From: Chiloscyllium plagiosum
Taxonomy: Eukaryota
Length of the DNA stretch: 64,000 bases
NCBI RefSeq assembly: GCF_004010195.1
Contig: NC_057752.1
Span: 4,291,626-4,355,625, forward strand
Direction: 5' to 3'
The translations under genes were made by a program, and so were the position numbers. Under the pieces are notes generated by a model that worked only from the letters and a program-made list of their open reading frames with translations, searched no databases and was not told the DNA's origin. How positions within the stretch are numbered: position 1 is the stretch's first letter; each line of letters begins with the position of its first letter. This document shows, in pieces, positions 22,688-45,417 of the stretch.

Positions 22688-25600
22688 CTGAATGGGGACG
22701 GATTTAAACACATGAGCAAAGAGAAGGAGCAACAATTGCACTGAAAACATAACTTGCCTAAGCCACCCATTCATTATACTGAGCCTCTCAGCAGTTCCTG
22801 CGGTTGCAGATGTCTGCAGTGTTGCTAAGGGTTGGGGGACATAAATTGCGACTTTTTGTGTGGTCCATCAGATTTGACAGATTCCGTCCCACACCCGACC
22901 AATCTTTGTTTGTGAGCCCTGGCAGTATCTACAAAGAAGGCCTTTTGCTGTGGGATTCAAGGAGGGCTGGAGGACAGGGTGTGTCGATTGGACCAAGCTC
23001 TCTGGCTCAATGGGGGGGAGGGGGGCGGAGGAGTGTGTGTGTGTGTGTGTGTGTGTTACTGTTTGTGCGTGTGTGTCGATGTCTGTGTGTATGTCTGTGT
23101 GTTACTGTGTGTGTTACTGTGTGTGTTACTGTGTGTGTTACTGTGTGTGTGTGTGCTAGTCTGTCTCTGTCCATGTGTGTGTGTCTGTCTGTGTGTATAT
23201 GTGTCTGTGTGTATGCATCTGTGTGTGTATGTGTGTTACTATGTCTGTGTTGGTGTGTGTGCATCTATATCCATGTGTGTGTGTGTTATTATGTGTATGT
23301 GTGTCTCTGTCTGTGTTTTAATTTTATCTTTGATCTGCAATTATCTGTTTGGCAGGAAATGTTGAGTGGATTTGGTATGACTTCAATATAAAATCATCCA
23401 CTGTTTCTGGACTTGAGCACTGTATACAAATTTGGGAGTCACGAATCAATAAGGGAAAATGATTTTGCACTCTCCCCCCTCAAACTCTCTATGCTTGCAG
23501 CACAGATACCTCTTGCCACCCACCACTAAGCATATAACAACTTAACCCAGTCCCGCTCACAGCTCTTCACAGTGACTGCCATGCGCAGCAAAATGGATCT
23601 TGCTCTGCTCAAAGTGATTAGATTTTGGTAATAAAAATAACTTAGCAGTTCTCTTACTTTTGACTGAATGATGATAGGTGACATTCACTGGGGTTGACAG
23701 CCTGAAATCAGAGACAAAAGAATAACTGTTACTGGAATGAACACACAGGAACACCCAAGGCTGGCTTAAGGTAGGAGAAAGCTCACATCCCTCTAATCCT
23801 GCTGCTGGTGGATTCAACTGCACTTTGAAAAGCTTTAAACTCCGAGGTGGGAAATTCCCTTGGAGCTTCCCCATGCTTAGTGTGTCTTAACTCTGCAAGA
23901 ACAGCAGTGACCAATGCACTCCTGGTGTGGGTGAAGGGACAATGCCTCGGAGTGCTCTCCCTGCCAAGTGCTCAACCACTGACGTGAGTGGTGTCAAACT
24001 TCGAATCATTTTAAGGTCGGGGTATCAGCATCAAATTTGTAATGGGCTGGCAGGTACGTGCCATGACTAACATATAGTGCCCACTTGCTCCGTGCAATCC
24101 GAAGAATTAGAAGGAGAAGGCTGCTCAGCATTCTTACCAACAAGATCTTCAACCAGAGACTGGTCCAAAAAAGAATTTGTCCCATTATTTTGTTCCAAAA
24201 TTAGACAAAGTTTTTTGAATAAAGTAAAAAAAAAACACATTTCAAAATGCTGTCACTTGAAAAACTACAGAAGTTACTATTAAATTCAACCTCTCTCCAT
24301 TCTATTTCAAAATGCTTCATATTTACAATATATTTTCCATGTTAGGCATACAGCCAGAGGACAAAACATTATAAGTTGCAAATTTCAGGAAGTGTGATTG
24401 AAATAAGCTTATCTCTGTACACCATGTCCCATTCCAAGACGCCCCAGTTCAGTTCCAACAAACGGGATGTTCACAATACACACTCCCAGTCAGGTATACA
24501 GTCCAAGGGGACTCAATGGTGTCAAGCCTGTCAGTGTGCTATGGATAAGAACCCCCTTCCCCACAGCCTGAGCATCCAGGGCCTTCCTTCTTCCTGGTGG
24601 ATCCCACCCCCCCCACAGCCAACCGGAGTCGACAGCATCTTGTTTTATTCAAGATAAGCATCTTCAGCCCAATGCTGGGTCGCAACTGAGCCAGGGGAGT
24701 GGGATCTCTCGGCATGGGCTGGCACTAGCATTGGCTCTGCCTTCTGAGAGCTACCATGCTCTTGGCCAGACTGTACAAAGCTCAGGTGTAGCCACACTTG
24801 GAGTATTACGCACAGTTCTGGTTGCCACATTATTGGAAGGATGTGGGAGCGTTGGAAAGGGTTCAGAGGAGATTTACTAGGATGTTGCCTGGTATGGAGG
24901 GAAGGAAGGGTGTTAGAGGAAAGGCTGAAGGACTTGAGGTTGTTTTCGTTAGAGAGAAGAAGGTTAAGAGGTGACTTAATAGAGGCACACAAGATAATCA
25001 GAGGGTTAGATAAGGTGGACAGTAAGAGCCTTTTTCCTCAGATGGTGATGGCTAGCACTAGGGGGCATAGCTTTAAATTAAGGAGTGATAGGTATAGGAC
25101 AGTTGTCAGAGGTAGGTTCTTTACTCAGAGTGCAGTAAAAGCGTGGAATTCCCTGCCTGCAACAGGAGTAGACATGCCAAGTTTAAGGGCATATAAATGG
25201 GCATTGGTTAGTCATATGGATGAAAATGGAATAGTGTAGGTTAGATGGGCCTCAGGTTGGTTCTACAGGCCAGCAAAACAGTGAGGGCCAAAGGGCCTGT
25301 ACTGTGCTGGGATGTTCTATGCTCTGTGGTGTCGTTTGGCTTGTGTGAGGTAGGCTTGTGTGACAAGGCTGCCGAGGCCGAATTGGAAACGGCAGGAACC
25401 CAATGCAACTCGAACCTCGGCTGCTTCCTGCTGGGTTCCATTCGACCTACACTGGAAGCCCAACATATATATCTCTCTTGCTCCCTTTCTCTCTCTCTCT
25501 ACCCAGCCCTAGGGTCATACTATGCAGTGCTCTTAAACAGGATCCATCTTTTGTGTATCCCAGAACATAGCCTTCTAGAAAAGTGCCAAACTTAGTCAAC

Positions 25601-28600
25601 GCAACCAGATAAAGAGGTACTCAAAGCACTAACCTGTTCTCTTCGCCTTCCAGCAATTTTTTGTAAGTGGCAATTTCGATGTCCAGGGCAAGCTTAGTGT
25701 TCATCAGGTCCTGGTACTCTCGTACCTGGCGGATCATCTCCTTATTAGCCTTCTCTATGGCTTCGTGCAATTCAGTGATCCTTTTGTTAATTTCTGAAAG
25801 GGCCAGCTCTCCACGGCCCTCTGCTTCGACAATGGCTGCCTCTAGCTGGTCTTTCTGTAACACATGGGAAACGGTCAGTACTAAGTGAGCCAGACCCCAA
25901 CTTACAGTAGATGGATAGGATGCACTGCACAGTGTGGGGAGGTAACATTTCCATCAAACCAAAAATACAGCGGACACAAGACTTTTGATTCTCTGCAAAG
26001 CAATCTTACTTGTTTGTTCAGAGCCTGGATTTCAGAATTAAGTCGCCCAACTTGTCTTTGCATGTCTGAAATCTCAGTCTTCATTATGCGGAGATTGTCT
26101 GCATGCTTTCCAGAATTTTTCTTCATGTCGCTGAACTAAAATGAAGAAGCATTATTAACATAACATCCATAATTATTCTTTAATTGCGTCCAACGCAACA
26201 ATAAAAGGTGGTCGGTAAGGAGCTCTAGTGGTACAACAGTAGTGTCCCTTCTGCTAGACGGGAGACCTGAGTTCAGGTCTCACCTGCTCCAGATGTGTAC
26301 AATAACATCTCTAAACAGGTCAATGAAGGAAACATCTAAAGGTGGTCAATGAGCTAACAGTTGTGATGGAGGGTCTGCATCTAAACATCATCATATTTTG
26401 TTCTTTGTTGGTTATGATAGACCTGCATTATCTGTGCTGCTTCGAATTGCAAATATGCCTTTCCTTTTCATTCATCCTAATGATTTCCTTAATTACTTTC
26501 TTTATTGAATGGCCATGGACAATAGAGCAGGAGGTCATTAGGGTTGCTTCCACACAAAAAAAAAACAAGGCAAAGGAAATCAAAGGTTTTGCTTTTGGAA
26601 TGTCAGAGGACAATAAAATGGAGGAAAGCACAGAGTCCTGGTTGTGGGAGGTAACTTACAAACTGAAAGTTAGAAAGCCTCCTTCACTGTCTACTAAGAT
26701 GACAAAGGTTGGAAGGTTTGAGTTATAAAGAAAGGCTGGATAGGCTGGGACTTTTTTCACTGGAGCGTAGGAGGATGAGGATAGAAGTTTATAAAATCAT
26801 GAGGGGTATAGATAGAGTTAATGGTTGGTGTCTTTTCTCCAGGATTTCAAGACTAGGGGGCACATTGTTAAGGTGAGAGGGGAGAGATTTAAAAAAAGAC
26901 ATGAGGGGCCAAGTTTTTACACAGAACGGGGCTCATGTGTGAAATGAACTCCCTGAGGAAGTGGTGGACGTGGGTGTGAAGAAGCTGCTCCTTTAACAAG
27001 GTTACATTGTCCTTGGCTTTTGTTTTCACGGAGGTCGTAAAAGCAGCGATTCCAAAACGTCCAGGTTTGAATGATTTTACGGCCAGTTAGTTAATAGATG
27101 CTGCCTCAGGCAAAAGGCTTTTAAGTTTAAAATAAAACATGTACAACGAAAGGGGAGTGGCCAGCTCTCCCAGCTCAGCTTTCCTCTGGATTGATTTGGT
27201 TTTTGGATTTCTGGCTGTTCACTGAAAGCAGTCAGTGAGGCTACTGATCCAAGACACAGCTCCATGGAAGAGGGTGTCCCACGCTGCCATCTCTCTCTCT
27301 CTCCTGTCAGACCCAGTGTTTGATTTTACCTTTTTTTGCCAAGGAGTGTTTATGGGGAATGTTGCAGGAATTTGGAACAGCTTCGTTACGTTGGGATAAT
27401 TTGTTGGGTTTTCAGAAAGGTTACGTTATTCCATATTCTGTTCTCTTTTGTTGATGTTTCATTCGGTAACCTTGTAAATAAATTCTGGTTTATTTAAAAC
27501 TGAGTGGTCTGACCAGCTGCATCCCTCCTGGAAGATCCACATTACCCCTGCTTAAAGCAACCCGCAAAGTTAAGGTCTGGGCTACTTTCTTGAAATGTTT
27601 TGAGGGGGGCTGGCCTGGTCCAGAACATGGGTACAATTACAACATTTGGATAAGTACATGAATAAAACAGGTTTGGAGGGAGGTTGGACTAGCTTAGTCA
27701 GGGATTATGCTTGGGCTGAAGGGTCTGTTTCCATGCTGTATGACTCTATGTCATTGTGTCACCACAGTCCTACCAGACCATAGGGCCTGCTCCCTCATTA
27801 GAGAGAGAGAGAGAGAGAAGTGACTGGTGCTGATTTAACCCAAGGGCCACCAGACCTCAGGCAAGGGAAGAGTTTGAGAAGGAGAATCCTTCATGGTAAC
27901 CTCAAACTAGTGATGGGAATTGAACCCATGCTGTTAGTGTCACACTGCTCTGTAAACCAACAATCCAGCCAACTGAGCTAAACTGATTCCCTGTTTGACT
28001 TGATTTTTTTAAAAAACGCACATTTTGTTGAAGCTTTTTGTCTTACACTCATCAGGACAATTTGCAAGGATATCAATCCCGGGGAAAAGCAGCATTTTTA
28101 CTGAATGAGGGGAGAGTGCCTATTCATTGGTAAGTGATAGAGGCCTTGCCATGGAGAATGCACCCATTAATACTGATTAACAGTTAACAGCCAGAGTCTG
28201 TTAGACATTTTGAACCAGGCATGCTGAGTCGAACTAGTCAGGGATATGCCCTGAGTAATGAACCTGTGACTGGCCATCACCTATTTTGTTGAGTCGAAAC
28301 AAGCATGGTATATGTACATGTTCTCTATGTCTGCAAAGACAGGGCCTTGTGTATTAATATGTGTAGTTTCCAGTACACACTAGTGGGCCACTTTGTGAGC
28401 CCGAATGACAATTGCAATTTTTTTCTTCTTTATTCATTCATGGGATGTGGGCGTCACTGGTTAGGCCAGCATTTAGAGCAGCATGGAAACAGACACTTGG
28501 TCAAACCTGTCCATGCTGACCAGACATTCTAACCTAGTCCAATCCCATTTGCCAGCACTTGGCCCATATCCCTCTAAGGCCTTCCTAATCATGTACCCAT

Positions 28601-31600
28601 CCAGATGCCTTTTCAATGTTGCAATTGTACCAGCCTCCACCACTTCTTCTGGCAGCTCATTCCATAACGTGCCACCCTCTGTGTGAAAAAGTTGCCCCTC
28701 CAGTCCCTTTTATATCTTTCCCCTCTCACCCTAAATCTATGCCCTCTACTTCTGGACTCTCCCACACTAGGGAAAAGACTTTGCCTATTTATCCTATCTA
28801 TGCTCCTCATGATTTTATAAACCTCTATAAGGTCACCCCTCAGCCCCCGATGCTCCAGGGAAAACAGCCCCAGCCTATTCAGCCTCTCCCTATAGCTCAA
28901 ATCCTCCAACCCTGGCAACATCCTTGTAAGTCTTTCTTGAACCCTTTCAAGTTCACCATATCCTTCTTATACTGCCCATCCCTAACTGCCCAGAGGACAG
29001 TTAAGAGTAAACCACATTGCTGTGGGTCTGGAGTTACATGTAGGCCAGACCATGGAAGGATGGCAGTTTCTTTCCCTGAAGGATATTAATGAACCTTTGG
29101 TTGTCAGTGTAATTCTTCATGCACTTGAGATTTTCCAGCAAATGTTGTGCAATTGCAAAACCACATCCGATGATAGATGCTGTTTTGCAAGGCAAGATGC
29201 GTTGGGTATAGTCAGGACCCCTGCTGGCTTATTACATTAATCTTCATTATAATTATCATAAACTGAAAACATTAACAAAGATTGAATAGGCTGGGGTGCT
29301 TGGTTGAAATTCCACCATGAGACAGCAACAAAAAACACAAATGTGTCTGCAGGAGACTCTCCCCATATTATTCATTGCGCAAGCTGCAAATAGTAGTATT
29401 GTCTCTTTCTCAATCACAGTATCTTAGAAGGCACTTGTGCCAGTGCTGGTGCCTGCTGTCTTAAAAATGGATATATCTCGTCTTTAACAGAGTTTGTCAT
29501 GCATTACCTTGTTTTCCCATGAGGTCACAGTATCTTGGCGCATTTTAACCACCATTCCTTCATATTGAGAGCGGACATCATTGAGGATACTGGAGAGGTC
29601 CAGTTTACGGCTGGTGTCAACCTCCAGAGTAACAGCAGTGTTCTTGATCTGGGCCTGCAGATCATGGATCTCCTGGGCAGGAAAGAAAGATGGACTTGCG
29701 TTTAACAATGCCCATGTCCCAATTAACAGTTCCAACTCTTGTTTCAACAAAAAACAGAAAGACAGATCGTATTTGTATTGTACACCCAGGTGAAGGTTGT
29801 GTCAACAGGGCTAATTGGAAAATATGGTTAGAAAGGTCACTTTTGTTGGGAGTGTTATTTGGATACTGACTTGAGAAATGACAGCAAAAGCTCCACATTA
29901 CACAGGAGTTCTTCACACAGCCTAATCCCCTTCTGGGTTTCTGAACTCCTTTCTCTTAAATCCTCTGCCCACAGCGCCATGATCTCAGCCATGATTAGGG
30001 TTCAGCAAGTTCCTGAATCCACCTCAGCTGGTTTGGGGATCAAACCCTGTGCAGTCAGCGCCAGTCTGAACTACATCCATGCCGTCCACAAAACAACTTG
30101 TTCTTTACCTCGTCAAATATATCCTTCAGGAAATTGATTTCATCGGTAAGGCTCTCCAGCTTAGCCTCCAGTTCCACCTTGTTGAGATAGCTTTCATCGA
30201 CATCCTGCAAGACAATTCAAAACCAAATAGACGAGCTCAAAAAACCCCAGAGTTTTACATTGAATTATTGTGTAGAAAGGAGGGGGGTTGGAGAAGATTT
30301 TGAACAGTCTTAATTACTCCGCGTTCCCATCATTCAATTGTCACCTCACTTCTCTCAAAGCTGTTTGTCCGAATTGAAGACCAGTCCCTAATTGAAGACC
30401 AGTTTCGCTCTTAATAGATGTGTGTCTTGATTTTCTTCAGTGACGTAGGTGTGGTGAGTCAGGATGGGTGCTCATTCTATAGCTCCAGCCTTGACCTCAG
30501 TCAATGTTCAAGCATCTTTTTCATTTAGATGCGGATTGCCCGCTGAATGTTAACTGGGAGCCCATCCCTGGGCTGCTGGTGGGGATGGGAAGAGGCGGAG
30601 ATGGGGAAAATGGCAACAGGATTGCCAATGCTTGTTAATGGACCGAATCAGCTCTCCATTGCTCACACAGCAGAGGCCTTGACTCAAACTGGAAAACTCC
30701 ATCTCTCTCTCTCCATTAATGTGTCTGCTGTGCCTATTGAAGCAGTTATCACAGCTCCCACCTCCTAGCAGTGCTGGATAAATGTGTTCCAATGAAGTGC
30801 AAGCTATATCCGACATATATGAAGGGGCAATGAACTCTGATGCCACATCATGATTGTAACCTTATTTAAACACCTCTCTTCACCCACATCTGAGGAGGCA
30901 TTTGTGACATGGGCATAGGTGATGCCAGGAAAATCTGCCCACCTTAGAAATGGATGGGGGGGTTCAGTACAAAAGGTTCTCACTCCAAGTTACCTGCCTG
31001 GCTGCTAGTAATATATCCTGTCACCCTGAAAATCTCTTCCAAGTGCCCTACAGACATGTTTCGCGGGCGGGCAGGCGGGGTGGGGGGAGCCCATCTTTGC
31101 AGAGATGGTTTGTATTGGCATTTAGCTTGAACCCACCTTCTTGATCATTACAAATTCATTTTCCCTTTCTGTACGCAAATTGATTTCGTCTTCATACCTT
31201 GGGAAGAGAGAGAGAGAAACACATTATCATCAATAGCTGTTGAGATGAGCTGTCTGTAGAATTACCAGAATTACTGTCGAGCCATAGAATGGTCACAGCA
31301 CAGAAGGTGGCCATCTGGCCCATTGCGCTCTGCAGGAACAGCGCAGCTTGTCCCCCTTCCACTCTCACGCCCTTGCCCCATCGCCCTGGACACATTCTCT
31401 TTGAGTAATTAGCCCTTTCTCTTTTGAAAGCCTTGATTGAATCTGCCTCCGTTGCACACTCAGGCAGAGTATTGCTCAATAAATATACAGTTAACAGATT
31501 GCTAGCACTCTCTGCCCAATGTCAAGGCTTTAAAGCCCAAGCCAATGTGGGTCAGACACAGTCAAACTTCACCGGCACCCTCCATTTGAGTTGCAGCCCT

Positions 31601-34348
31601 CCACATTTCCTTTCCACAGGAGGTTTGCAGTGTAGAACTGTCTGGTAATGATGGGCTGTCGCACATTATATTAAAGGCAAGTCATTGTTAGTACCATCAA
31701 ACTGACAGGAACCCAAGTAACAGATTTGAAGATGACATGGCTAACTCTAACAAGACATCAAGGCATTCCCCACAAAGTGTTACATTTTTCATACACTTCA
31801 GGATACAAATGGATTTTATGCTTGCATTTTCCTATCTACCTGGCATTCCACACTTTTTCTTAAAATACGATGCCACTGGTAACAAAGTTATGTGCAACTG
31901 ATCATGAAATGCTGTAAATTGTAAATGCCCCAAGTCCCAATCACCTGTCACCCCAAACCTGCACTGGCATCCAGTCTTAAAACGATCATCTTTGCTTTTA
32001 AATCCCCCCATGGCCTTGCCCCTTTCCCATCTCTCTAATCTCCTCCAGCTCTGTAATCTCTAATTCTGGCCTCTTGAGCAAGCTCCTAATCTTAACTGCT
32101 TCAACACTGTGCCTTCAACTGCCTGGGTCCCAGGTTCTGGAATTCTCCCTCTAAGGCTCTCTACCTGACTTTCCCCTTTTAAGACATCCCTTAAACTTGA
32201 CCGCTTTTGCTCATCTGAGCTCAGATCGCCTTCCTTGGCTTCTTATTCGATAGTTTTATAACATTCCTTTCAAGCACCTTGAAACATTTTATTAGGTTTA
32301 AGACATTATGCAGCTATAAACTCGTGTAAGTAGTTTAACTTCAAACCTTTGCACTCTGCTTATTCGCAATGGTCAAAGAATTTGTTTTTAATCTTTGAAT
32401 GCCAGTTCCCCGGCAGCACCATCGGGGGACGAAGTGAGCTACAAGGTCCCAAGATTCAATCCCAGATTTCTGCTGAACTGCCTAATCTCCCCTCGACTCT
32501 AGAGGTTCAGCCGTTGTCTTCAGCATCTCAGGGTAGGGGAAGAGAGGGAATAACAAAGTAGATGACAGATCCTGCCCCTGATCTCTGCCTCCTGATCACT
32601 GCAGGACAAAAACTGTCAAAGGGATGTCCACTTGCAGCTGAGTGGCCAGCCAGCACCCATTGGCTGAACTCACATGGCCACTTGGGTGATGTGCTAGAGG
32701 GACATTTGATGCTTTCTGTTCTTGTGTAATTGCAGTTGAAACTAATTCCACAAGGAACAGTCTATTTGGGCCCCTCGAACCCGTTCCACCATTCAAGAAG
32801 ATCACGGCTGACCTTTGACCTCACATCCACTTGCCCCACTCTCTCCCTCAGAGTCTGAAAATCTATCGCTATTGTTCTGGAATATCAACGGAGCTTCTGC
32901 AGCCTGCGATCCTTCACCCTATACTGCCTCTCCAGACAAGAACAAATAGCATTTTATCAGTCAAGTCCTGTCGGTCCATGCCTTTACATCAGCACTTGTT
33001 AGGGCTAGTTAATAATAAATGAATATTGCCAGTTCGGAGTCACCTGGTCTTTGGATTTTGGAGTTTACAATGTTCAGAAAGCTGTGTAGATGACATCACA
33101 ACAGCCAAGTGATATTAAACTCCAAACCATGAACCATCCATTACAAGGTCCATTCACTGGTGCTTTATTACACAAGCATTTTGGTGATTGTTAGTGCATC
33201 TTGGGACTTTTGAATTCTGTTATCCGAGTAAAGTGTAACATACTCATGTAAAATTCCTTGGTGCACAGTCTTAATGCAGTTGTACCGTTCAATGTGATTG
33301 GGGTCAACTAATCCAGGGCAAAGGCAAATTCAACCTCGAATGTGGCTTTGAGACTTGTTTGGTGATGTATCAGCTACAGCCTACCCTCTGAGGAAGATGA
33401 TAGTCAGCTCACGTTCCACACCACAGACTCCGGCCCCAGGCTAGCACTCCGAGCCGGCACTCAGGGAATGCTGCACTGTCAGAGGTGCCAATCATTCGGA
33501 TGAGACTTCAAACCTGAGGCTATGTCTGACATCTCAGGTGGATGTAAAATAGCGCATTGCACTAACTGAAGTACAGCAGCAGGCTCTCCCCAGAATCCTG
33601 ACCAAGACTTACCACCCAACCATCATCAGCAAACTGATCCCACATCGCATGGTCTTTCTGAGAGTCTGCTATGTGCTTTTCAGTGGCAGCATTTGCCTCT
33701 AAAAGTAAAGCATTCTGCCAGTTCTCGAATTCTAAAGGAGCTTTATGTAACTTCCTTCATTCACTCGAACACATTTAGGCCATCTAGATACGAAATAGGA
33801 CACGTTACGTTCACCATTTTCATGGGCAGTCATGTGAACCAGCTCCTACCTTCACACCAGTGGGCTGTGCCAAATCAGGTAACCTTGGCATAACTCATAC
33901 TGGCAGGAAGCTCTGTCCCCCATTGTGCCCACTGACCTATCTTAGTTTCCCATCTGGCAACACTTTGAACATTCCCCATGCTCCCCCCCCCCCACCCCGA
34001 TTGATCACGACAGGAAGCAGATGTGCATGAACGCCCACTGAGTACAGGAGGAGTCTCAATTACGATGAAGAGGTAGCAATGTGCCACAGGTAGAATGCTG
34101 ACACTTGTTTCGGTTTATGCCCAATTTCTCAACCTCAGTCAGTGTCTTCAGGGCAGGAGTTAAGCCAATTGTTAAGAAGGGTTTGGAGGGATACGGGCCA
34201 AGTGCTGGCAAAGGGAACTAGATTAATTTCGGATATCTGGTCAGCATGGATGAGTTAGACTGAAGGGTCTTTTCCATGCTGTACATCTCTAGGAATCTAA
34301 TTCCTACCTTTAAGTTAAACTTTAAGCTTGTTTCACTCATTCTCAGAG

Positions 34349-34386
<38 letters not shown>

Positions 34387-37300
34387 CTTTGAGATTTTGT
34401 TTAAATCTCACTTTTTGACAAAGCTTTTGGTCACTTCCTTCTCCCTTCGAGGAGCACTGGTTTGGTGCCTCCATACCTGGTACAAATGGACAAAGCTTGT
34501 GCCACATGTGCTCTGTCTGTTTCCACCTCAAAACGTTACAATCAGCGTCAATACATGCCAGGCGACACTGACTTGTCTATCACAAATGGCCTCCCACTTG
34601 AAACACACTGGCATTTCAGATGCCCAGCTTGGCCCCTATCAAAGAGAGTGCCAGCCAGAGTGCCAGTGAAAGTTTGGCAGCAAGTGCCTAGACAACAGAG
34701 TGGCATGATGGCTCAGTGGTTAGCACTGCTACCTCACAGCACCAGGGACCTGGGTTTGACTTCAGCCTCGGGTGACTGTGTGGAGTTTGCACATTCTCCC
34801 CGTGTCTGCGGGGGTTTCCTCCCACAGGCAAGAGATGTGCAGGCCAGGTGAGTTGGCCATGCGAAATTGCCCATAGTGTTAGGTGCATTAGTCAGAGGGA
34901 AAATGGGTCTGGATGGGTTACTCTTCGGAGGGTCAGTGTGGACTGAAGAGCCTGTTTCCACATTGTAGGGAATCTAATCTAAACATTTTCAGGCCAGTGC
35001 TGTCTTGCTAACAGTTAGAATTCAGCTTTCAGTTGCTTTAGACGGGAGTGTTTAAAATGCAGTAAAGTAGCAGCATCGTTTGAGACCTTGGGGATGGTCA
35101 TCCTTTTTCGCTTCAGGCCCAGGTTAAAAAATAAAAAGTCCTACGCTCAGCATCATTCCAAGACATGGCCAACAGCAGCAGCAGTGAATTTCCAGTGGTG
35201 ATGGTGCAAGCACTAGAACCTCAGGCATCAGTGGCCCTTCAGGATGAGGGACTTTGTTTCATTTCAGTAAACATGAGGAAGGAAAGATGACATTACCCTA
35301 CCTCCTGTGTTCTTTTCCCCTAAATATATTGCTCATTGGGAGGGTGTACAATCAACTGAAGAGGAAAAGGCGAGCAAGCATATGAGCATGTGACCTGATG
35401 TTCTTACAACCGTGAATTGCAGCGAAAAGTGCAGAGGACCCTCCCCGAAGATCATTGTTATAAAACAACAAAGAACATTTTATGCAAAACCCATTAACCT
35501 GTCTGCTTCCAGGGAGAACTAATCTACTTGATGTCTGTAACTGGGGCTAACATAAGTAAACAGCTTTGTGCATAACATCCTATTGAGGGGAACAATTTCA
35601 ATCTCAGGTGACCCAGATCGTAACTCTAATCCAAGCTTGTGGATGAATTCAGTCTTAAAGCACCCTTTCCTTACGATAGAACTTACTGACTGAACAGTGA
35701 CACAGCTCACAACTCACCCCTCAGTAACAGCTGCTCTCTCTGGTGGGATAGGTCATGTCTCACCACCTGGACAGGTGAAACATGAACCCAAACTCTCTGG
35801 ACCAGAGGTAGGGACACTACCACTGAGCCTTGAGATCCCAACAACTCACCCATTGCATTTACACAGTAATTCAGTCAATTAGCTGCAGCTAATACTGATG
35901 CAGGCGTGCATACGGAGACTGGCGCATCAGTTAGCTGGTCAGTGACACAATTGGGTAGAGTCAGTTCCTGCACTGGCTGAGGTTACCAGGAAGGACTCTC
36001 CTTCTCAACCTCTCCCCTCATCTGAGGTGTGGTGACCCTCAGGTTAAACGGCACGGTGGTTAGCACTGCTGCCTGACAGTGCCAGGGTCCCGGGTTCAAT
36101 TCCTGCCTCAGGCAACTGTCTGTGTGGCGTTTGCACATTCTGCATGGGTATCCTCTGGTTTCCTCCCACAGTCCAAAGACGTGCAGGTTAGGTGAATTGG
36201 CCATGCTAAATTGCCTGTAGTGTTAAGTGAAGGGGTAAATGTAGGGGAATGGGTCTGGGTGGGTTGCTCTTTGGAGGGTCAGTGTGGACTTGTTGGGCCG
36301 AAGGGCCTGTTTCCACACTAAGTAACCTAATCTAAACCTCCCTCTGAGTAGAGTGCTGATTTGGGGGTGCCAGTGTTGGACTGGATTGGACAAAGTTAAA
36401 AATTACACAACACCAGGTTATAGTCCAACCAGTTTATTTGGAGGCACTAGCTTTCAGAGCACTGCTCCTTCATCAAGAGGTTGTTGTGCAGCCCTGTTGT
36501 CCAGGAGGACTACTGTGACTTTATCTTTAAAGGTAACCATTCAAATTAACTTTATCTTCTGGCTGGTTCTCATTACTCCTTGGAGGTATATTGACACAAG
36601 GAGTAATACTAAGAGAAATGATATAACTTCTCTTAAAAACAAAAAAAAATTACAAGCTGTGCACTCGGCCAAGACAGAAGAAAAAAATACAATGTTTAGA
36701 TTAAATTCCCTACAGTGTGGAAACAGGCCCTTCGGCCCAACAAGTCCACACCGACCCTCCAAAGAGCAACCCACCCCAGACGCATTCCCCTACTCTCACC
36801 CCTGACTACTGCACCTAACACTACGGGTAATTTACCTGACCTGCACATCTTTGGACTGTGGGAGGAAACCGGAGCACCAGAAGAAACCCATGCAGACACA
36901 GGGAGAACGCGCAAACTCCACACAGACAGTCGCCCAAGGTTGGAATTGAACCCAGGTCCCTGGTGCTGTGAGGCAGCAGTGCTAACCACTGTGCCACCGC
37001 GGATTGTGTCACAATGTGCCTCAGGAGACTTGGATGAAGGACCAGGAATAGGGTAACCAAACCAAAGTTAAAAATCACACAACACCAGGCTATAGTCCAA
37101 CGGGTTAATTTGGAAATACTAGCTTTTGAAGTGCTGCTCCTTCATCAGGTGGTGAGGAAGCTCGTGCTTCCAAATAAACCTGTTGGACTATAACCTGGTG
37201 CTGTGCGAGTTTTAACTTTGTCCACCCCAGTCCACCTCCACATCTTCACCAAAACAGTTTCTCCGCCTGATTAGCTTATAATGGATGCTGCTGGAAACCG

Positions 37301-40300
37301 CGTGGGTCCAAAGGGAAGAGATCTGATCCAACAGTACCAATGCTCTTCCCCAGGCTAGGGTCATGTATGAGGAATGATCGATGGAGATCGTGGTTGAGAC
37401 GCTTTGCTGGTTTTTGGTCAACCCTCCCTGACCCATGCTTTTCATGCCAGCACATTCAGCATCCTGACTGAGGAGACCAGCACAAGCTGTGGATTGAATC
37501 TGATAGCCTTGGGCACTTTACTTAGATGACTGAACAATCAAGAGAGACTTACCTCTTCAGAGCATTGCTGGTCCATAGTCAAATTGGACTGTTTTAGTTA
37601 TGGAGATTGCTGCATCTCTCTACTTGACAATAGGGACTACGTCTCCATGAAGCACTTCATTTGTGAGGATGCATTCTCACACATCCCTGAGACACAAAGG
37701 GTGGCACATAACTGCATGCCCTTTCGTTCTTTCAATGGTTGGAATGGTAGAATCCAATCATAAGTCCGGAGAAACGGTATACCAAGTGAAACATAAAAAG
37801 GGTCCACAAGCCTAAGCTTTGTTGCTACCTTCCCCAAAGCCCTGGTCAATTTTTTATCCCTCAGCAAAAAAACAAAATCACAAAAACACATTAGTCAATT
37901 GTCTCACTGCTGTTGGTGGAATCAACAGGCTGCCACCACCCCAACACTCCAAGAACGACTGGTGGTGCAGTGGTTAGCACTGCTGCCTCACAGCACTGGG
38001 AACCTGGTTTCAAGCCCACTCTCGGGCGACTGTTTGTGTGGCGTTTGCATATTCGCCCTGTGTCTGCGTGGGCTTGTTCCGGTTTCCTCCTACAGTCCAA
38101 AGATGTGCAGGTTAGGGTGGATTGGCCACGCTGAATTGCCCCATAGTGTCCAGGGATGTGCAGGTTAGGGTGGATTGGCTATGCTAAATTGCCCCATAGT
38201 GTTCAGGGATGTGCAGGCTGGGTGGGTTAGCCATGAGAAATGTGGGGTGGGGGGATGCCCTTTGGAGGGAGAGGGTGGACTCAATGCGCTGAACGATCTG
38301 CTCCCATACTGTCGGGATTCTATGACTGGACTTCCAAAGTGGCTGGGAGGTGTTTTGGGAATCTGAGGCTGTGATAGGAGCTCCCTATCATTTGGTAACA
38401 ATGCTGTTAGCGGATCTGCCTACCCGTGGTGTGCTACACTGTGGTGTGTGCTAATTCAGGTATCCCACATGACATTCCTGAGTTACTTCCTAGGGAAAAG
38501 TGGCAGAGGTGATTTCCTGCTGCCTTTTCAGTTTCTGAAGTATTGCCTTCTAGATGGGCTGCGAAGAAGACTAAGGAGCTTGTCCAACCACATGCCCAGT
38601 CTCCATTCATCAGGGCAGTCCAGAGCCGACTACCCATAACCATGGTCCACAACACTAGTGGGCACTTCTTCGAGATTTTAACTCCGTTTTAACAGAGAAC
38701 ATTCCAATCCTCACCCACCAGAGCTCTCAGGCTTGGGATTCCATAAAATGGTCCCTTTAAAATTTAGTTGCTGTGTACAGCTGATCCTTTCCCTCTGGGG
38801 AATCTTTCTATCTTTTGTTGCCTGTATAGTTCCTCGTATGCTGTTACATTGCTGTCTGTACACACAGTTTAACAGAAACAATGCGTTGTGGACTCAGCAG
38901 GCTGTTGACGGCGATGGTGCTCCGATATCTTTCAGGACAATACCTAACTCATGTAATGGTTCTCAATATTCTATTTGCAGTTTCTCTAGACTTCAGCTCC
39001 ATTCACTCCCCATAAATGAGGATCTAAGATTAGTTTAATCTGGTTTCATACAGACGTTCTGAAATAATAGATTTTTTTTAAAAAAAAGAATAGGCTAAAT
39101 CGCTTGAGCTTACTGTTCAAAGAATATTGTCCAAGTCTTCAGCTCAAAAAGAATTCCTCAGCCAAGCTGCTTAGAAACTGAATTAAAGAGGCATCATAGA
39201 ATCCCGACAATGTGAAAGCAAACCATTCTGCCCATCAAGTACACACCACCCTGCCAAAGAATTCCCACCAAGACCCACCCCATCCCTGTAACACTATGTT
39301 CACCCACCAAACCTGTATATTTTTAGACTGTGGAAGGAAACTGGGACCCTTGCAGACACAGGGAGAATAGATCAGTGGTTAACACTGCTGCCTCACAGCG
39401 CCAGGGACCTGGGTTCGATTCCAGCCTCGGGCGACTGTCTGTGTGTGGAGTTTGCACATTCTCCCCGTGTCTACATGGGTTTCCTCTGGGTGCTCCAGTT
39501 TCCTCCCACAATCCAAAGATGTGCAGGTTAGGTGAATTGACAGTGCTAGATTGCCCATAGTGTTCAGGGATACATAGGCTGGGTGCATTAGTCAGGGGTA
39601 AATATAGGGTAGGGGAATGGGTCTGGGCGAGTTACTCTTCAGACAGTCGGTGTGGACTTGTTGTATTGAAGGGTCTGTTTCCACATTGTAGGGATTCGAA
39701 AAGAAAACATACTGGGATCGAACCTGGGTCCCTGGCGCTGTGGGGCAGCAGTGCTAACCACGGAGTCACCGTGTGGCCCTGTGAATGAAGTTATGCTATC
39801 ATTTATTAAAGGTAAAGTCACTGGTTCTATTAGATTGGAGAGTCGCTCTCTTATTGGACAGAGGCAACTGAGGGTAACCACGCCTCAGGCGAGGGGAGAG
39901 GTTGAGGAGGAAAACCCATCAGAGTAGCGGGAATTGAACCCAACATGCTGGCGTGACCCTGCCTTGCAAACCAGCCCCCTCTTCAGCTGCATAAGGCAGT
40001 TTGATGAGCCCTATTTCTCATACTGTTGTATAGAATCATTGACTCTTACAGAACAGAAGGAGGCCATTCAGCCAATTGCACCTGTACTGGTTCTTTGAAA
40101 GAGTTTTCTAATTAGTGCCCACTTCTCTACTCTTTCCCCAAAGCCATTTCCACCCCCCATCCCACCCTTTTAAGGAAACATCCCATTCACCTTTTGAAAA
40201 AAAAATTACGTTTAAACCTGCTCTTGTGCAGGTAGCACAATCCAGAAACCCAACAGCTCCCTGCTTGAAGAAAAATTCATCGCCCATCTGCACCTTTTGC

Positions 40301-42315
40301 CAAAAGGAAGGTGGCCAGCACATGGCGTTGGTTTGGCAATCAAGACCACTGGGCACAGATACTGGTAAAACCGAAGCTCACATTTACTTAGAGTATCTTT
40401 GGGTTTAATTCAAGCACCTCCTTGGTTTCAGCTGTCGGTAGTATTCTGAGAGTCTCCTGTGAATGGAGCTCACAAAATGTGAATACGTCACCCTGTCCTT
40501 CTGAAACTTTAGCACGAGTCCTGGCTATCCCCTGGCCCAGTGGGATTGGCACCAATTTTTCAGCAACTGCTTGGAAGAGCTCTAAGGAAATTCTCCATGA
40601 CAATGACAGTAAATGAAGTAGTTATACCAGCCCTGAGATCAAGTTTTGTAACTAAGATTCTGTAACTAGATACCTTGGCACCTAAGATGGCGCCATAAGT
40701 GGTGACTTGTAAATTTTTCACTGCACTCATGCGAGTACATGTGACAATAAACTTAATTCGGTTCAATTCACACTTTGGCTGTCCTTCTCTGACAGATTCA
40801 TGGCCAATCCACACAAATACCTTGAACTCACCCAGAGATCCTGTGAAGGTGCGTGAGCAATTCACTTGGCCCGATTTTATAACAAGTTAAAATTAAACCA
40901 ATGGGCTAGCAGCTCTGCTTAAACAACAGGTACAGGAACTTCGTGTTTATAACTTACATTACGCTTCACAATTTGCATAATGTCCAAGGTGAAATTTCTG
41001 TTTCTCTCTCCTTCTCTACAACTCATGCAGAAATCTACTTTTTTCCAACTAAATCAGTTAAACAGGATCAAAGGCAAACTGGGGGCGATAGCCCCTGAAA
41101 GGCACTGTAACAAAAGGTCAAACATTTCAAAAGGAAACCGACAAATTCAAAGTGAACGGTCATTTTGAGGATTGATGGGGGGTGTCCCCTGAATTTGGAA
41201 GTTTATTCTAATCCAACTAAAATCTGAATTTCACTCTCTCCCCTCCTAAACGTAAACAGCCAGCAATTGTTAACACTTACTTGGTCTTGTAATCTTCCAC
41301 CATTCCCTGCATGCCTTCCAGTTCGGATTGCAGGCGAAGCTTTTCCTGGGCTAGGGTGTCGATCTGCTGCTTGAGGTTGTTGGAGTAAACTTGGAAGAGG
41401 CTGTCAATGTTGGAGCTACGCACACCTTTCTCATGCAGCAGTTTCCAGTGCATTTCCAACTGCTTGTTGCGGTGCTCCAGTGACCGCACCTTGAAAAAAT
41501 AAGGTCACGCATACTGCTTGACTCTTCAATTAAAAAAAAATGCAGAAATTGCTGGAGAAACTCAGCAGGTCTGGCAGCATCGCGAGTTTCTCCAGCAATT
41601 TCTATTTATGTTTCAGATTTTCAGCATCCACAACTCTGTTTTATTTGTTTTAAATGCACCTGTCTTCATTCCAGGGTTACGTGGGGGTCAAAGACAAAAC
41701 AGCAGCTGTCTCGGGCAGCAGTGGAAATAAATATCAAAAGGTGCTTCATAACGGTAGCCCATTTTTTTTCCGCCACTGTCAAACTCAATAGGGCGTCACC
41801 GCGAAAGAAGACGCCTCACATTATTACAGGTGCAATCGCCCTGAGGCTATTTGCTTTTCCACAGTTGCAAGTTTATGCAAACGTTATCCTTGTTTTGAAA
41901 AGCATCGATTGGTTTAAGGCTTTGAAAATGCGTTGGATTTCAGAGTCCAGCATTTTGTCACAGTTTAAGCGCGCTTCGTATTAATGTTGAATATTCTATG
42001 ATTTGATTCGAACTTTTTTTTTAAAACAAAAACGATTTCAGGCTTTACCTTGTCGATGAAAGAGGCGAACTGGTTATTCAGCCCTTTGATCTGTTCCTTC
42101 TCGCGGAGACGGAGCTCCTGGAGCGCCTGGCCGCCCTCGAAGCGGGGGTTCTCGGCAGGTATTTTGCCCAGACTAGGGACGTTGCCCAGTCGCTGAGCGC
42201 TCATGCCCAGGAACGGGCCACTCCGGACCATGCTGACCCGCTGCATGGACGAGCCGGGGGTGTACGACTGGCTGCTGAAGTGGGAACGGGAACGGAGCGA
42301 GCTACGGCCGGACAT
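22539..42315 (-). CDS. krt8: Type II keratin, keratin 8-like (445 aa); join complement(42315-42049, 41489-41281, 31197-31137, 30204-30109, 29672-29508, 26135-26010, 25854-25634, 23701-23658, 22687-22539)
   Basis: Nine GT-AG exons of 267/209/61/96/165/126/221/44/149 nt join into one open 1338-nt frame. Motifs: coil 1[17 protein letters not shown], helix termination [21 protein letters not shown]8-type tail [16 protein letters not shown]. The 209-nt exon 2 matches K8. Orthologue versus paralogue is not resolved. Confidence 0.9.
23034..23315. repeat. Degenerate (GT)n / (GTGTGTTACTGT)n microsatellite in krt8-like intron 8
   Basis: Direct inspection. Confidence 0.95.
23658..23701 (-). CDS. krt8: krt8-like exon 8 (tail)
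   Basis: 44 nt with phase 2 start and phase 1 end as in type II keratin exon 8; strong polypyrimidine tract ...gatttcag|(R)[14 protein letters not shown]|gtaaga; restores frame into exon 9. Confidence 0.75.
24780..25325 (+). mobile_element. CR1 3' fragment in krt8-like intron 7
   Basis: [27 protein letters not shown]...AWNSLP. Confidence 0.85.
25634..25854 (-). CDS. krt8: krt8-like exon 7 (coil 2B end)
   Basis: 221 nt, [19 protein letters not shown]...[29 protein letters not shown], ttacag|...|gttagt. Confidence 0.96.
26010..26135 (-). CDS. krt8: krt8-like exon 6
   Basis: 126 nt, [42 protein letters not shown], ttttag|...|gtaaga. Confidence 0.95.
26700..27750 (+). mobile_element. CR1/HER1 3' fragment interrupted by a solo LTR
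   Basis: CR1 sequence gtggtggacgTGGG resumes as TGGGtacaattac after the insert. Confidence 0.8.
26975..27627. mobile_element. Solo LTR (653 bp) with 4-bp target-site duplication
   Basis: TG...CA ends, TGGG duplicated at 26971-26974 and 27628-27631, internal AATAAA at 27478-27483. Confidence 0.8.
27752..27985 (-). mobile_element. Third tRNA-SINE family (related copies ~35930-36048 +, ~39800-39980 -, ~45985-46140 +)
   Basis: Shared ctcagttggctgga...gggttcaattccc...ccttctcaacctctccccttgcctgagg...ctctctaatgag. Confidence 0.6.
28475..28955 (-). mobile_element. CR1/HER1 3' fragment nested in a SINE
   Basis: [38 protein letters not shown]. Confidence 0.88.
29508..29672 (-). CDS. krt8: krt8-like exon 5
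   Basis: 165 nt, [38 protein letters not shown]...WENK, cccag|...|gtaatg. Confidence 0.95.
30109..30204 (-). CDS. krt8: krt8-like exon 4
   Basis: 96 nt, [32 protein letters not shown], ttgcag|...|gtaaag. Confidence 0.95.
31137..31197 (-). CDS. krt8: krt8-like exon 3
   Basis: 61 nt, [20 protein letters not shown], cccaag|...|gtgggt; too short for the ORF track. Confidence 0.95.
33440..33700 (+). mobile_element. Deu-domain SINE relic (SacSINE1/AmnSINE1-like)
   Basis: ctgcactgtcagaggtgcc...ttcggatgagac...ctcaggtggatgtaaaa matches the Deu core as recalled. Confidence 0.65.
34700..34980 (+). mobile_element. HE1 SINE
   Basis: tRNA head, V core, (TAATC) tail. Confidence 0.85.
36049..36335 (+). 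mobile_element. HE1 SINE
   Basis: tRNA head, V core, CR1-like tail. Confidence 0.85.
36697..37000 (-). mobile_element. HE1 SINE
   Basis: Reverse complement of HE1 head, core and tail. Confidence 0.85.
37063..37220. repeat. Inverted repeat (~63-bp arms) from a Penelope-type terminus
   Basis: Arms 37063-37125 and 37158-37220 are reverse complements with a few mismatches; single-arm relative at ~36365-36480. Confidence 0.75.
37960..38325 (+). mobile_element. HE1 SINE with a duplicated 53-bp internal unit
   Basis: gatgtgcagg recurs at 38102, 38155 and 38208. Confidence 0.85.
39195..39775. mobile_element. HE1 SINE (+, ~39372-39700) nested inside an opposite-strand HE1
   Basis: Minus-strand tail at ~39195-39365 and head at ~39710-39775 flank a plus-strand copy. 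Confidence 0.75.
41281..41489 (-). CDS. krt8: krt8-like exon 2
   Basis: ttttcaag|[12 protein letters not shown]...GMVEDYKTK|gtaagt, 209 nt. Confidence 0.95.
41544..41603. repeat. Perfect 20-bp inverted repeat with 20-nt loop in krt8-like intron 1
   Basis: AGAAATTGCTGGAGAAACTC (41544-41563) and GAGTTTCTCCAGCAATTTCT (41584-41603). Confidence 0.9.
42049..42315 (-). CDS. krt8: krt8-like exon 1 (head + start of coil 1A)
   Basis: ccactATG context; [18 protein letters not shown]...[18 protein letters not shown]; donor AAG|gtaaag. Confidence 0.92.
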
Positions 42316-42497
42316 AGTGGTCTCTTTTGTCTCTCCCTTGTTACAAGATCGGGGCAAAAAGCAACAGAAAGTTTGGATTAACTGCAAGAGCGGGGAAGCT
42401 AGGAAGAGGGTAGCAAAACAAAAAGGCCAGTATCAGAAACCCCTTTCTGATGTTTGCCCCGAAGGCAAGTGTGCTCCCGTTAGACGGCGTTGGACGG

Positions 42498-42608
42498 TAT
42501 ATAGGCAAATTCCTGGCGCTCTCATTGGCCAGAAACACTGTCTGAAATGGATTACCATGGTAACTGGACGCTACCTCAGGCCAATCGGCGATAGCCGGAA
42601 GGTATAAA
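42498..42608. promoter_or_regulatory. Bidirectional krt8/krt18 core promoter
   Basis: Minus-strand TATATA 42498-42503 and CCAAT 42524-42528; palindrome TTACCATGGTAA 42552-42563; plus-strand CCAAT 42581-42585, CCGGAAG 42595-42601 and TATAAA 42603-42608; CpG-rich surroundings. Confidence 0.75.
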
Positions 42609-42720
42609 GTGTCAGTACTTGCTGTGAGTTGGTTATTGATTCCCCTCCAGGTACTCCCTGCAACAAGTGCAGCTCCAAACACAACTTCCAAACCTCGCCG
42701 CCTCTCTTTCTCCCTCCAAG

Positions 42721-43092
42721 ATGAGTTTCCGAAATTATTCCTCGCTGTCCACCCACAGTGGTTCTATGTCCCTGCGGAGGTCCATGCCCCTGCAGTCCAG
42801 TGCGAGCAGCATCGCTGGCTTCGGCCACAGGATGTCGGTGAGCCGGGTATCGATGGCCCGGCCTGTGGGCATGGCCGCCGGGGCCAACTTCAGTGTCGGC
42901 GGGGTCAGCAACCAGAAGGAGGCCATGCAGAGCCTGAACGACCGGCTGGCCAGCTACCTGGAGAAAGTGCGCAGCTTGGAAGCGGCCAACGCCAAGCTGG
43001 AGGTGCAGATCAAGGAGCACTTGGAGTCCAGGGAAGCCAGCGTCCGAGACTGGGCCATCTACGAGAAGCCGCTCAGTGACCTCCGCAAAGAG
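42721..43092 (+). CDS. krt18: krt18-like exon 1
   Basis: ccaag[11 protein letters not shown]...LSDLRKE; donor GAG|gtaacg. Confidence 0.93.
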
Positions 43093-45417
43093 GTAACGTT
43101 TAGCTGGGGGGGGGGAGGGGGGCTGTCCTGGCACAGGGGGCACCATGAAAGGAGTGAGGGAGGGGAGAGGAAAGAGTTTCTCTCTTACACAATAGCTGAG
43201 GAAGAGGCTGCCAACCTCCCCGCACCAGTTCACTCTTAATTTATAATATTTATATGTATAAACGCAACACTTTAACCGATTTATTCTGTTCGATCCTTCA
43301 GGTCTATGAGATGACCATCGAAAATGCTCGTTTGGTACTTCAGATCGATAATGCTCGTCTGGCTGCTGACGATTTCAGGGTGAAGTGAGTTCTCTCTCTC
43401 CCTCTCTCTCATAGCCACACAAAGTTTAGTCAACGCTGTAAGTAGTTTCTAATCAACCAGTTCAGAGATCTTGTGTCAAGCAGCTGGGACTTGAACCTGG
43501 CTCAGAGGGCGGGCTGCTGTGTCATGCGAACCTCAGCATGTGCAATACCTTCCCCACACACCCTCCCCGCCCCCAACCCCAGCTCCTCTGACACGGCCTG
43601 TTTGTCTTTCCCCTGGACAGGTGGGAGTCTGAGCTGAGCATCAGGCAGTCTGTGGAGAACGACATCAACGGACTGCGCAAAGTCATTGACGACACCAACA
43701 TCGGGCGCCTGCAACTGGAGAGTGAGATCGAGTCTCTCAAGGAGGAGCTCATCTACATTCGGAAGAACCACGATGATGTAAGTTCCACCGAGATGTCCCT
43801 CGTTGACAATGAGTGGGTGTAGAATTCACCGGTGCTGAAAAGTCAATAGGATCCTGTAAGAAGGGAGATTGAAGTAAATGATTGGGAAATCAGATTATTG
43901 CTGTACAAGTAATTTCCGTGTGAGAACAATAATAGAGGTAAGCTAATAAAATATAAGGTGTTCAGTTATTGAAATGAGCTATGAAGTTTTGTCCCCCTTT
44001 TTGACTCTCCAAACGTTTGAGTTCTAGACATAGAGCACTTTGGTAAGAACGGAGTGGAAATTGTCTTTTCATTCTACAGGAAGTTAAAGCTCTGCGCTCC
44101 CAGGTCACTGGCTCCAGTGTGCAGGTTGAAGTGGACTCCCCTCAGGGCCCAGATCTGGCTAAGACCATTGCTGAGATCAGAAAGCAATATGAGGAGGTGG
44201 CACAGAAAAACAAGGATGATGCGGAGAACTGGTACAAGAGCCAGGTAAAGACGAAAAAAAAACCCCACGCCGTTCCACATCTTGTTTCACTGATAACATT
44301 TGATTCAATTGATCCCTCCAAGTAAACAGAATTGCAATTTGACCAAATATCCTCCAAATATAAGAGCTTGTGAATGCTGGTGAAAACTGGAAGCTTTAAA
44401 TGCATTTCTTATTGCAGATAGATAGCTACAAAATTGAAGTTGAACACAATGCTGAAGAACTGCAAGGTTCAAAGGCACAAGTCACTGAACTGCACCATCA
44501 GATACAGTCTCTGGATGTTGAGCTGGAGAGTCTCCTGAGCAAGGTAAGGACTCCATTGTGAACAGGTGTAACTCAAACCAAAGCCTCACCTCACATACTG
44601 CATGCAACACCAACTGATCTAATTGAAGGATCATGTCTGCTCCTTTTTTAAAAAATTCTGCCTGTATTTTTGTTTCATTTGAGAAAAACTCATTGGAAGG
44701 CACTCTCAAAGACACAGAACTGAGATATGACATGGAGCTGCAAAGCCTAAATGGCATGATTGCCAAACTGGAGGGAGATCTGTTTCAGATCCGGAGTGAT
44801 ATGCAGACCCAGGTCAGAGAATATGAAAACCTTTTGAACGTGAAGATGAAACTCGAGGCTGAAATAGCAACATACAAACACCTGCTGGATGGGGAAGATA
44901 TCAAGTAAGTAGCATCAGTGGAAAAAGTAATGACTATGACACAGTTGTGCATCCACAATCCACACCTATGTGTAATTGCTCTGAGCTGATTTATTTCTGT
45001 CTCACTTTTTTTCTTTCTCTTTTGTTCTTATAGCGCACTTGTTGAGTCAACCTCAGGTAAGACCATTTAATTCAGGAAATGTGTGCATGTAATTTTATCG
45101 TGTGCCTGTTATACACCCCATGGGATAGGTTTTCATCTGCTCCATACAGCTGGAAGTCTGCCCTGCTTGTCATTCTGTTGAAAGCTATGGTGGGGCGGTA
45201 GCAGGCCAATTCTACAAGGATGTGCGATTCATCCAGCGAGGATGGAAATCTATTGTATGTTAAGTTTCTTGTCTGCAAACGTACCTGCTCACAATTTGAT
45301 TCTTTTCCTTTTGCATGACCAGGTGCCACCTCACAAACTATCAAGAAGACTGTCGTCACCACTCAGAAACTCATGGATGGCAAAGTGATATCTGACGAGA
45401 CAGTCCGCATTAACTAA
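42721..45417 (+). CDS. krt18: Type I keratin, keratin 18-like (413 aa); join(42721-43092, 43302-43384, 43621-43777, 44080-44244, 44418-44543, 44684-44904, 45034-45056, 45323-45417)
   Basis: Eight exons of 372/83/157/165/126/221/23/95 nt join into one open 1242-nt frame. Motifs: [62 protein letters not shown] linker, [17 protein letters not shown], tail [21 protein letters not shown]. Confidence 0.93.
43302..43384 (+). CDS. krt18: krt18-like exon 2
   Basis: 83 nt, [28 protein letters not shown], cttcag|...|gtgagt. Confidence 0.96.
43621..43777 (+). CDS. krt18: krt18-like exon 3
   Basis: 157 nt, [52 protein letters not shown], gacag|...|gtaagt. Confidence 0.96.
44080..44244 (+). CDS. krt18: krt18-like exon 4
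   Basis: 165 nt, [39 protein letters not shown]...WYKSQ, ctacag|...|gtaaag. Confidence 0.96.
44418..44543 (+). CDS. krt18: krt18-like exon 5
   Basis: 126 nt, [42 protein letters not shown], ttgcag|...|gtaagg. Confidence 0.95.
44684..44904 (+). CDS. krt18: krt18-like exon 6
   Basis: 221 nt, [15 protein letters not shown]...[18 protein letters not shown]; acceptor is the rare GAG (catttgag|), donor |gtaagt. Confidence 0.9.
45034..45056 (+). CDS. krt18: krt18-like exon 7 (23-nt microexon)
   Basis: Long polypyrimidine tract, ttatag|c gca ctt gtt gag tca acc tca g|gtaaga; required to keep exon 8 in frame. Confidence 0.8.
45323..45417 (+). CDS. krt18: krt18-like exon 8 (tail, TAA stop)
   Basis: gaccag|[31 protein letters not shown]. 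Confidence 0.88.

Follow-up and report, generated by a model that had tools for sequence, protein, structure and literature searches.

The window analysed here, a 64,000-nucleotide stretch of Chiloscyllium plagiosum DNA, carries two genes that, judged from sequence, are orthologues of the keratin genes K8 and K18, lying as neighbours with their 5' ends facing each other. Their gene models are given below.

22539..42315, minus strand: krt8, type II keratin, nine coding exons, 445 amino acids, GT-AG introns, open frame
42315-42049, 41489-41281, 31197-31137, 30204-30109 and 29672-29508, minus strand: krt8 coding exons 1-5
26135-26010, 25854-25634, 23701-23658 and 22687-22539, minus strand: krt8 coding exons 6-9
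22364, minus strand: krt8 polyA signal AATAAA
42721..45417, plus strand: krt18, type I keratin, eight coding exons, 413 amino acids, GT-AG introns
42721-43092, 43302-43384, 43621-43777 and 44080-44244, plus strand: krt18 coding exons 1-4
44418-44543, 44684-44904, 45034-45056 and 45323-45417, plus strand: krt18 coding exons 5-8
45524, plus strand: krt18 polyA signal AATAAA

The krt8 protein is identical at 445/445 residues to XP_043537741.1 (K8-like) and the krt18 protein at 413/413 to XP_043537743.1, both from the C. plagiosum RefSeq set, and these RefSeq models start at the same two ATGs, located at 42315-42313 on the minus strand (krt8) and at 42721-42723 on the plus strand (krt18). In the catshark Scyliorhinus stellaris, K8 (O57610) shares 381 of 443 positions with krt8 and K18 (O57611) shares 320 of 413 with krt18. 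The first-pass annotation had named the two genes as the chains of a keratin heterodimer, and the RefSeq identity together with the catshark matches bears this out. Within a 35-row K18 tree, with an open root and without any krt18.2 sequence, all 14 sequences from sharks and rays fall into a single clade (support 100/100) that joins lungfish, coelacanth and ray-finned K18 at 97/93, and the tetrapod K18s fall outside this group. The bony-fish sequences that best match krt18 carry the names krt18a.1 or K18, and K8 was assigned by sequence identity.

Among sharks with RefSeq accessions for both genes, the two lie on scaffolds of the same size in 7/7 species and have near-consecutive accession numbers in 5/7, a pattern that suggests krt8-krt18 adjacency and holds no information on distance. 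The catshark S. canicula model XP_038642259.1, a 952-residue RefSeq read-through, combines K8 and another type II keratin in one protein and, as a sequence model, indicates that a type II gene adjoins krt8 downstream in that species. Together with the names of the best bony-fish matches, this model leans towards cluster 2 (krt18.1) over subcluster 4 (krt18.2), as a tentative placement of the pair. No keratin beyond krt8 and krt18 turned up in the 64-kb window, and no type II gene within the 22 kb downstream of krt8. A metagenome scan with K8 returned one locus from 289 pattern matches, distant (35%) and unspliced. The lengths of krt8 and krt18 are very unequal for a co-regulated pair, with primary transcripts of 19.8 kb and 2.7 kb, respectively, that is, about sevenfold. 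Intron 2 of krt8 (41280-31198, minus strand) spans about 10 kb and is repeat-rich, and the whole krt18 gene is almost without self-repeats. At three of the 15 introns (41490, 31198 and 44683) the acceptor reads AAG or GAG instead of YAG.

The distance between the start codons, first put at about 405 bp, is exactly 405 nt, and the following features were placed in and around this spacer.

42316..42720, no strand: spacer between the start codons, 405 nt, GC 0.50, CpG observed/expected (o/e) 0.56
42316..42472, minus strand: 5' leader predicted for krt8, free of ATGs over about 157 nt, start taken from the TATA position
42498..42503, minus strand: krt8-side TATA-like element TATATA, a palindromic hexamer
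42510..42513, minus strand: krt8-side GGAA, weak, between CCAAT and TATA
42522..42530, minus strand: krt8-side CCAAT box of NF-Y type, core 42528-42524, fits the published 9-mer pattern
42551..42564, no strand: RFX X-box-like 14-mer containing a perfect 12-bp palindrome (42552-42563)
42579..42587, plus strand: krt18-side CCAAT box of NF-Y type, core 42581-42585, fits the published 9-mer pattern
42595..42601, plus strand: krt18-side GGAA in ETS-like context, core 42597-42600, ends 2 nt before the TATA box
42603..42609, plus strand: krt18-side TATA box TATAAA, hexamer 42603-42608, fits the published pattern
42634..42720, plus strand: 5' leader predicted for krt18, free of ATGs over about 87 nt, with a pyrimidine tract and AG at its end
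41001..44000, no strand: CpG-enriched region over both first exons

On each strand the order CCAAT, GGAA, TATA runs outward as had been described, with CCAAT-TATA gaps of 20 nt (minus) and 17 nt (plus). The two CCAAT boxes lie 57 nt from each other, and the TATA elements, reported as about 100 bp apart, are separated by 100 nt from first T to first T. The mirror symmetry claimed for the spacer holds for this motif order but not for the sequence itself, as the reverse-complemented left half aligns to the right half with a score of 15 against a shuffle mean of 16.7, a score reached by 1,649 of 2,000 shuffles, and the only sequence shared between the halves is a 10-nt CCAAT context. This shuffle-level alignment rules out a sequence-level inverted repeat or an ancient inverted duplication of the spacer. 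The GGAA 4-mer is present on both sides; the ETS name attached to it is weak and fits the plus copy only, and by the general consensus we take the plus copy as ETS-like and the minus copy, which has a poor flank, as ETS or TEAD-like. Around the krt8-side TATA, 11 of 13 positions repeat the krt18 TATA context in direct orientation. Against the published pattern TATA[AT]A[AGT] (PMC2559893), the krt18 element fits on its own sense strand, whereas the krt8-side element reaches 6/7 on minus, its seventh base being C, and 7/7 on plus; a strict double TATA is therefore absent.

All motif statistics are post hoc, the patterns having been picked after the sequence was seen. With this qualification, when the spacer was dinucleotide-shuffled 50,000 times, both CCAAT-TATA modules occurred at once in 0 shuffles and either alone in 175; with a looser gap of 10-70 nt, both appeared in 1 of 50,000 shuffles, and there not divergently. 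A CCAAT-10..40-TATAWA module is found at three sites in the 64-kb window, two of these in the spacer, and with an extended CCAAT context at two sites, both in the spacer. The chance of GGAA in both CCAAT-TATA gaps is about 0.6% against the window background. Support that does not depend on motifs comes from the CpG o/e peak: the five top 1-kb tiles of the window all fall in 41001-44000 (0.90-0.55, against a median of 0.32), and 500-nt windows with GC of at least 0.5 and o/e of at least 0.6 cover the spacer, which thus has CpG-island character. The window's top CpG o/e lies in krt8 intron 1 (41500-42000) despite low GC, and this segment is a candidate intronic enhancer. No copies of the spacer were found elsewhere in the 64-kb window, and no Rfam family in the spacer at gathering level; the single match to a non-coding RNA, which reaches 19.7 bits where the gathering score is 50, was set aside as chance.

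A TATA box sits at about -30 from the start of transcription, and starts are therefore predicted near 42472 (minus) and 42633 (plus), about 160 nt apart. The predicted leaders contain no ATG, and the rest of the spacer contains five (three on plus, two on minus). Motif geometry, CpG enrichment and these ATG-free predicted leaders give good support to the compact divergent promoter that had been proposed, with start sites that are predictions. We also scored splice sites, with an acceptor matrix built from the 15 real introns of krt8 and krt18. An acceptor-like site before the krt18 ATG (42701-42723, plus strand; 20 nt) scores 11.7, within the top 0.6% of 4,096 plus-strand AGs, and real acceptors range from -0.4 to 14.4 on the same matrix (leave-one-out); this site could take a minor upstream exon. 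Other acceptor-like sites lie at 42651 (plus) and 42381 (minus), while the best plus-strand donors in the spacer score at most 5.0, as compared with 4.1-11.8 for real donors. Hairpins in the predicted krt8 leader were also considered and rejected (z 0.05).

New in this analysis is an X-box-like 14-mer on the symmetry axis between the CCAAT boxes, its centre at 42557.5 being 3-4.5 nt off the CCAAT midpoint (42554.5) and the TATA midpoint (42553). The palindrome inside it is the only perfect 12-bp one in the spacer, and 811 of 10,000 spacer shuffles produce a 12-bp palindrome of any kind; perfect palindromes of at least 12 bp number 14 in the window. The 14-mer also fits, with one mismatch, a stricter pattern that we take to represent the X-box; allowing at most one mismatch, this pattern turned up in 1 of 10,000 shuffles and at two sites in the window. 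On the plus strand the 14-mer fully matches the RFX X-box consensus RYYRYYN(1-3)RRNRAC (PMC4168999), and it agrees at 11/14 positions, by eye, with a second published motif quoted in the same source. The window contains 35 sites that fit the loose consensus, which corresponds to about 3% for a gap of 52 nt. Because loose matches and chance palindromes are common, this candidate RFX site appears to be a fair lead rather than a proven site. A second strong X-box-like 14-mer lies at 10166-10179, 12 kb past the krt8 3' end.

In the literature searched, no link was found between RFX and the regulation of these keratins. NF-Y does co-occur genome-wide with RFX5 and with double CCAAT boxes (PMC4889920). 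The spacer resembles the X-Y module of MHC class II genes, where RFX5 and NF-Y cooperate, in having an X-box-like site near a CCAAT box (PMC4889920); unlike that module, it has one X-box-like site between two outward-pointing CCAAT boxes, with RFX and NF-Y as candidate factors. The MHC class II geometry itself was rejected, as the distances from the X-box to the middle A of the CCAAT boxes, read off the sequence, are 19 and 25 nt against a fixed 29 nt. The 57 nt between the CCAAT boxes lie outside the double-CCAAT spacings of 24-28 or 35-37 (PMC4889920).

In mammals, the main starts of KRT8 and KRT18 are tens of kb apart. COL4A1 and COL4A2, like the present pair, lie head to head and encode obligate partner chains, and they share a very short promoter; unlike the present pair, they are TATA-less, their chains assemble at a 2:1 ratio, and the short spacer is kept in mammals. 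Unlike this keratin pair, histone genes lack introns and are driven by the cell cycle. The closest tested layout is that of medaka H2A/H3, with 352-371 nt between ATGs compared with 405 nt here, and the dual activity of the medaka histone fragments was validated (PMC11676430). Histone pairs of medaka (PMC11676430) and human (PMC2559893) share with the spacer a GC content of about 50%, TATA and CCAAT/NF-Y motifs, and products that are partner subunits, but they usually have TATA on one side only, as in 2/3 medaka fragments (PMC11676430). TATA at both ends is rare: among 1,369 human bidirectional pairs, it was found at both starts in 1, and CCAAT at both in 100 (PMC2559893, Yang and Elnitski). 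Divergent mRNA-mRNA blocks of less than 300 nt have, as predicted here, opposite core promoters in one nucleosome-depleted region, with separate PICs at its edges in human (bioRxiv 10.1101/055731). Such human blocks are mostly TATA-less, with 90% in CpG islands and TATA at -30 in 1.2%, whereas the present case is a tissue-restricted structural pair with TATA-like elements. By analogy, then, the spacer may be placed with the histone-type or COL4A1/A2-type bidirectional promoters, which it resembles in geometry and CpG content, with start sites and function that are predicted; it is not a strict double-TATA promoter.

The gene arrangement itself is known. The head-to-head krt18/krt8 array was described from lamprey and elephant shark to tetrapods by Kimura and Nikaido (bioRxiv 10.1101/2020.05.06.063123), with the same genes in the same orientation as here and a species set without an elasmobranch. 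They proposed it as the ancestral keratin pair, so the ancestral arrangement suggested in the first-pass annotation agrees with a published proposal and is not a new idea. The words 'promoter', 'bidirectional' and 'intergenic' have 0 uses in the main text of that preprint, whose separate supplementary coordinate files may show spacer lengths, and the passages seen of a zebrafish krt8/krt18a.1 paper (PMC11394277) hold nothing on gene spacing. Among the matches listed in the open-access literature, nothing describes a krt8/krt18 promoter that is compact or serves both genes. As judged from its sequence, the spacer is an unusually tidy divergent promoter candidate at this known arrangement.

Starting from the gene models, motif positions and CpG enrichment observed, we consider it reasonably probable that the spacer works as one open promoter region with two outward-facing core promoters and the central X-box-like palindrome as a shared activator site. 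Each side would consist of a CCAAT box followed by a TATA element, with predicted starts about 160 nt apart. NF-Y bound to both CCAAT boxes would keep the region nucleosome-free, and each TATA would position its own pre-initiation complex, with starts near 42472 and 42633, so placed that each gene would have its near CCAAT box at about -53 and the far one at about -107. An RFX-family dimer on the palindrome would be orientation-neutral and may therefore act on both genes, and krt8 and krt18 would thus switch on together from a region opened by NF-Y and served by a shared RFX dimer. What is predicted is joint on/off switching and not equal output; epithelial specificity would probably come from enhancers outside the spacer, and it would be the removal of unpaired chains by degradation, as happens in mice, and not the promoter that brings the two proteins to 1:1. 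Several observations count against this explanation, namely the better fit of the krt8-side TATA on plus and its direct repetition of the krt18 TATA context, X-box/CCAAT spacings that are off the known ones, the acceptor-like site at the krt18 ATG and the post hoc nature of the motif statistics.

The evidence has to be weighed against three other readings. Two independent TATA/CCAAT promoters, each with its own enhancers, may simply be packed side by side with a central palindrome that arose by chance. Each side does have a complete CCAAT-TATA set, the halves are without sequence-level symmetry, and perfect palindromes and loose X-box matches recur in the window (14 and 35, as above); moreover, human KRT8 and KRT18 are co-expressed without such a spacer and have a common distal enhancer (PMC8733776, PMC7039683). 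With only about 160 nt between the predicted starts, however, one nucleosome-free region must serve both, and the X-box-like site lies less than 5 nt from the symmetry axis, so that we regard full independence as rather unlikely. A main krt18 start further upstream, with a leader spliced to the ATG, or a left TATA read plusward, would mean that one of the two modules is not a real core promoter. In human, one KRT18 variant includes a non-coding exon upstream, and this reading would also account for the score of 11.7 at the krt18 ATG, the further acceptor-like sites at 42651 (plus) and 42381 (minus), and the left TATA passing the published pattern on plus only. Yet acceptors are mimicked by pyrimidine-rich leaders, the plus-strand donors of the spacer are weak (at most 5.0 against 4.1-11.8), a plus start near 42528 would bring in two upstream ATGs (42547 and 42557) that open short frames, and the left CCAAT is placed where a minus-strand promoter needs one; we hold an upstream start to be unlikely.

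The strict form of the earlier proposal, one switch by which the output of both chains is held at 1:1, draws on the symmetric motif order and the palindromic central site. The balance of K8 and K18 does matter, because an excess of K8 over K18 causes aggregates in mouse liver (PMC2171301). Protein parity is, however, kept at another level in the mouse: degradation of the unpaired keratin partner sets K8:K18 at 1:1 (PMC2171301), the protein stays equimolar in K18 heterozygotes, and livers lacking K18 show unchanged K8 mRNA (PMC2132680). Human KRT8 and KRT18 expression is correlated (rho 0.89) with ratios that differ by tissue (PMC8733776), and a distal enhancer is common to both genes (PMC7039683). 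Considering also that the two TATA elements fit unequally and that one primary transcript is about seven times as long as the other, we find 1:1 enforcement by the promoter unsupported and highly improbable. For the joint switching that we favour, a published marker table of dogfish skin holds observations on both sides. There, krt8 and krt18 (names as annotated in the source) are both key genes in two clusters, which counts for it; the four key genes of one epithelial cluster include krt8 without krt18, and another cluster carries the label krt8++ (PMC13558645), and these krt8-only and krt8++ clusters count against it.

A krt8-like gene was located on the X chromosome in 13/13 elasmobranchs examined (bioRxiv 10.1101/2025.02.26.637739), and the shark X is homologous to part of human chromosome 12 (bioRxiv 10.1101/2022.10.17.512540). 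The krt8-krt18 pair described here is likely that X-linked locus. Orthologues of krt8 and krt18 lie on small scaffolds, of 12-20 Mb in several sharks. The X of C. plagiosum is without global dosage compensation (PMC11406177); no keratin entry that would bear on male and female expression of the pair was found in two supplements of that paper. It can be speculated, as a doubtful extension of the shared-promoter reading, that elasmobranchs have retained, on an uncompensated X, the founding pair's ancestral control, a conserved 160-nt switch of the order TATA-CCAAT-[X-box]-CCAAT-TATA whose single RFX site, with an NF-Y site on either side, turns on K8 and K18 at the same time, and that mammals later split the promoters for shared enhancers. 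If true, both chains would halve together in males, because the X lacks global dosage compensation. A shared promoter would also lock the two genes together and so give a concrete reason for the lone type I keratin staying beside krt8 in the type II cluster; a 2022 review noted the position of krt18 as an exception and called the persistence of the clusters unexplained (PMC8733776). A 160-nt two-way promoter could further serve as a dual-expression cassette. The significance is limited in that the gene arrangement is known and keratin stoichiometry needs no such switch.

The surroundings of the pair in the window contain many SINE-like copies and LINE-like reading-frame fragments at 14055-14513, 19216-19731, 56233-56718 and 61193-61711, which, by resemblance, we take to be a CR1-like tail and L1-like ORF1. 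Assembly gaps are present at 3015-3931 and 50741-51441. In krt8 intron 1, a perfect 20-nt inverted repeat with a 20-nt loop (41544-41603) is possibly the remnant of a small mobile element, because related sequence occurs elsewhere in the window.
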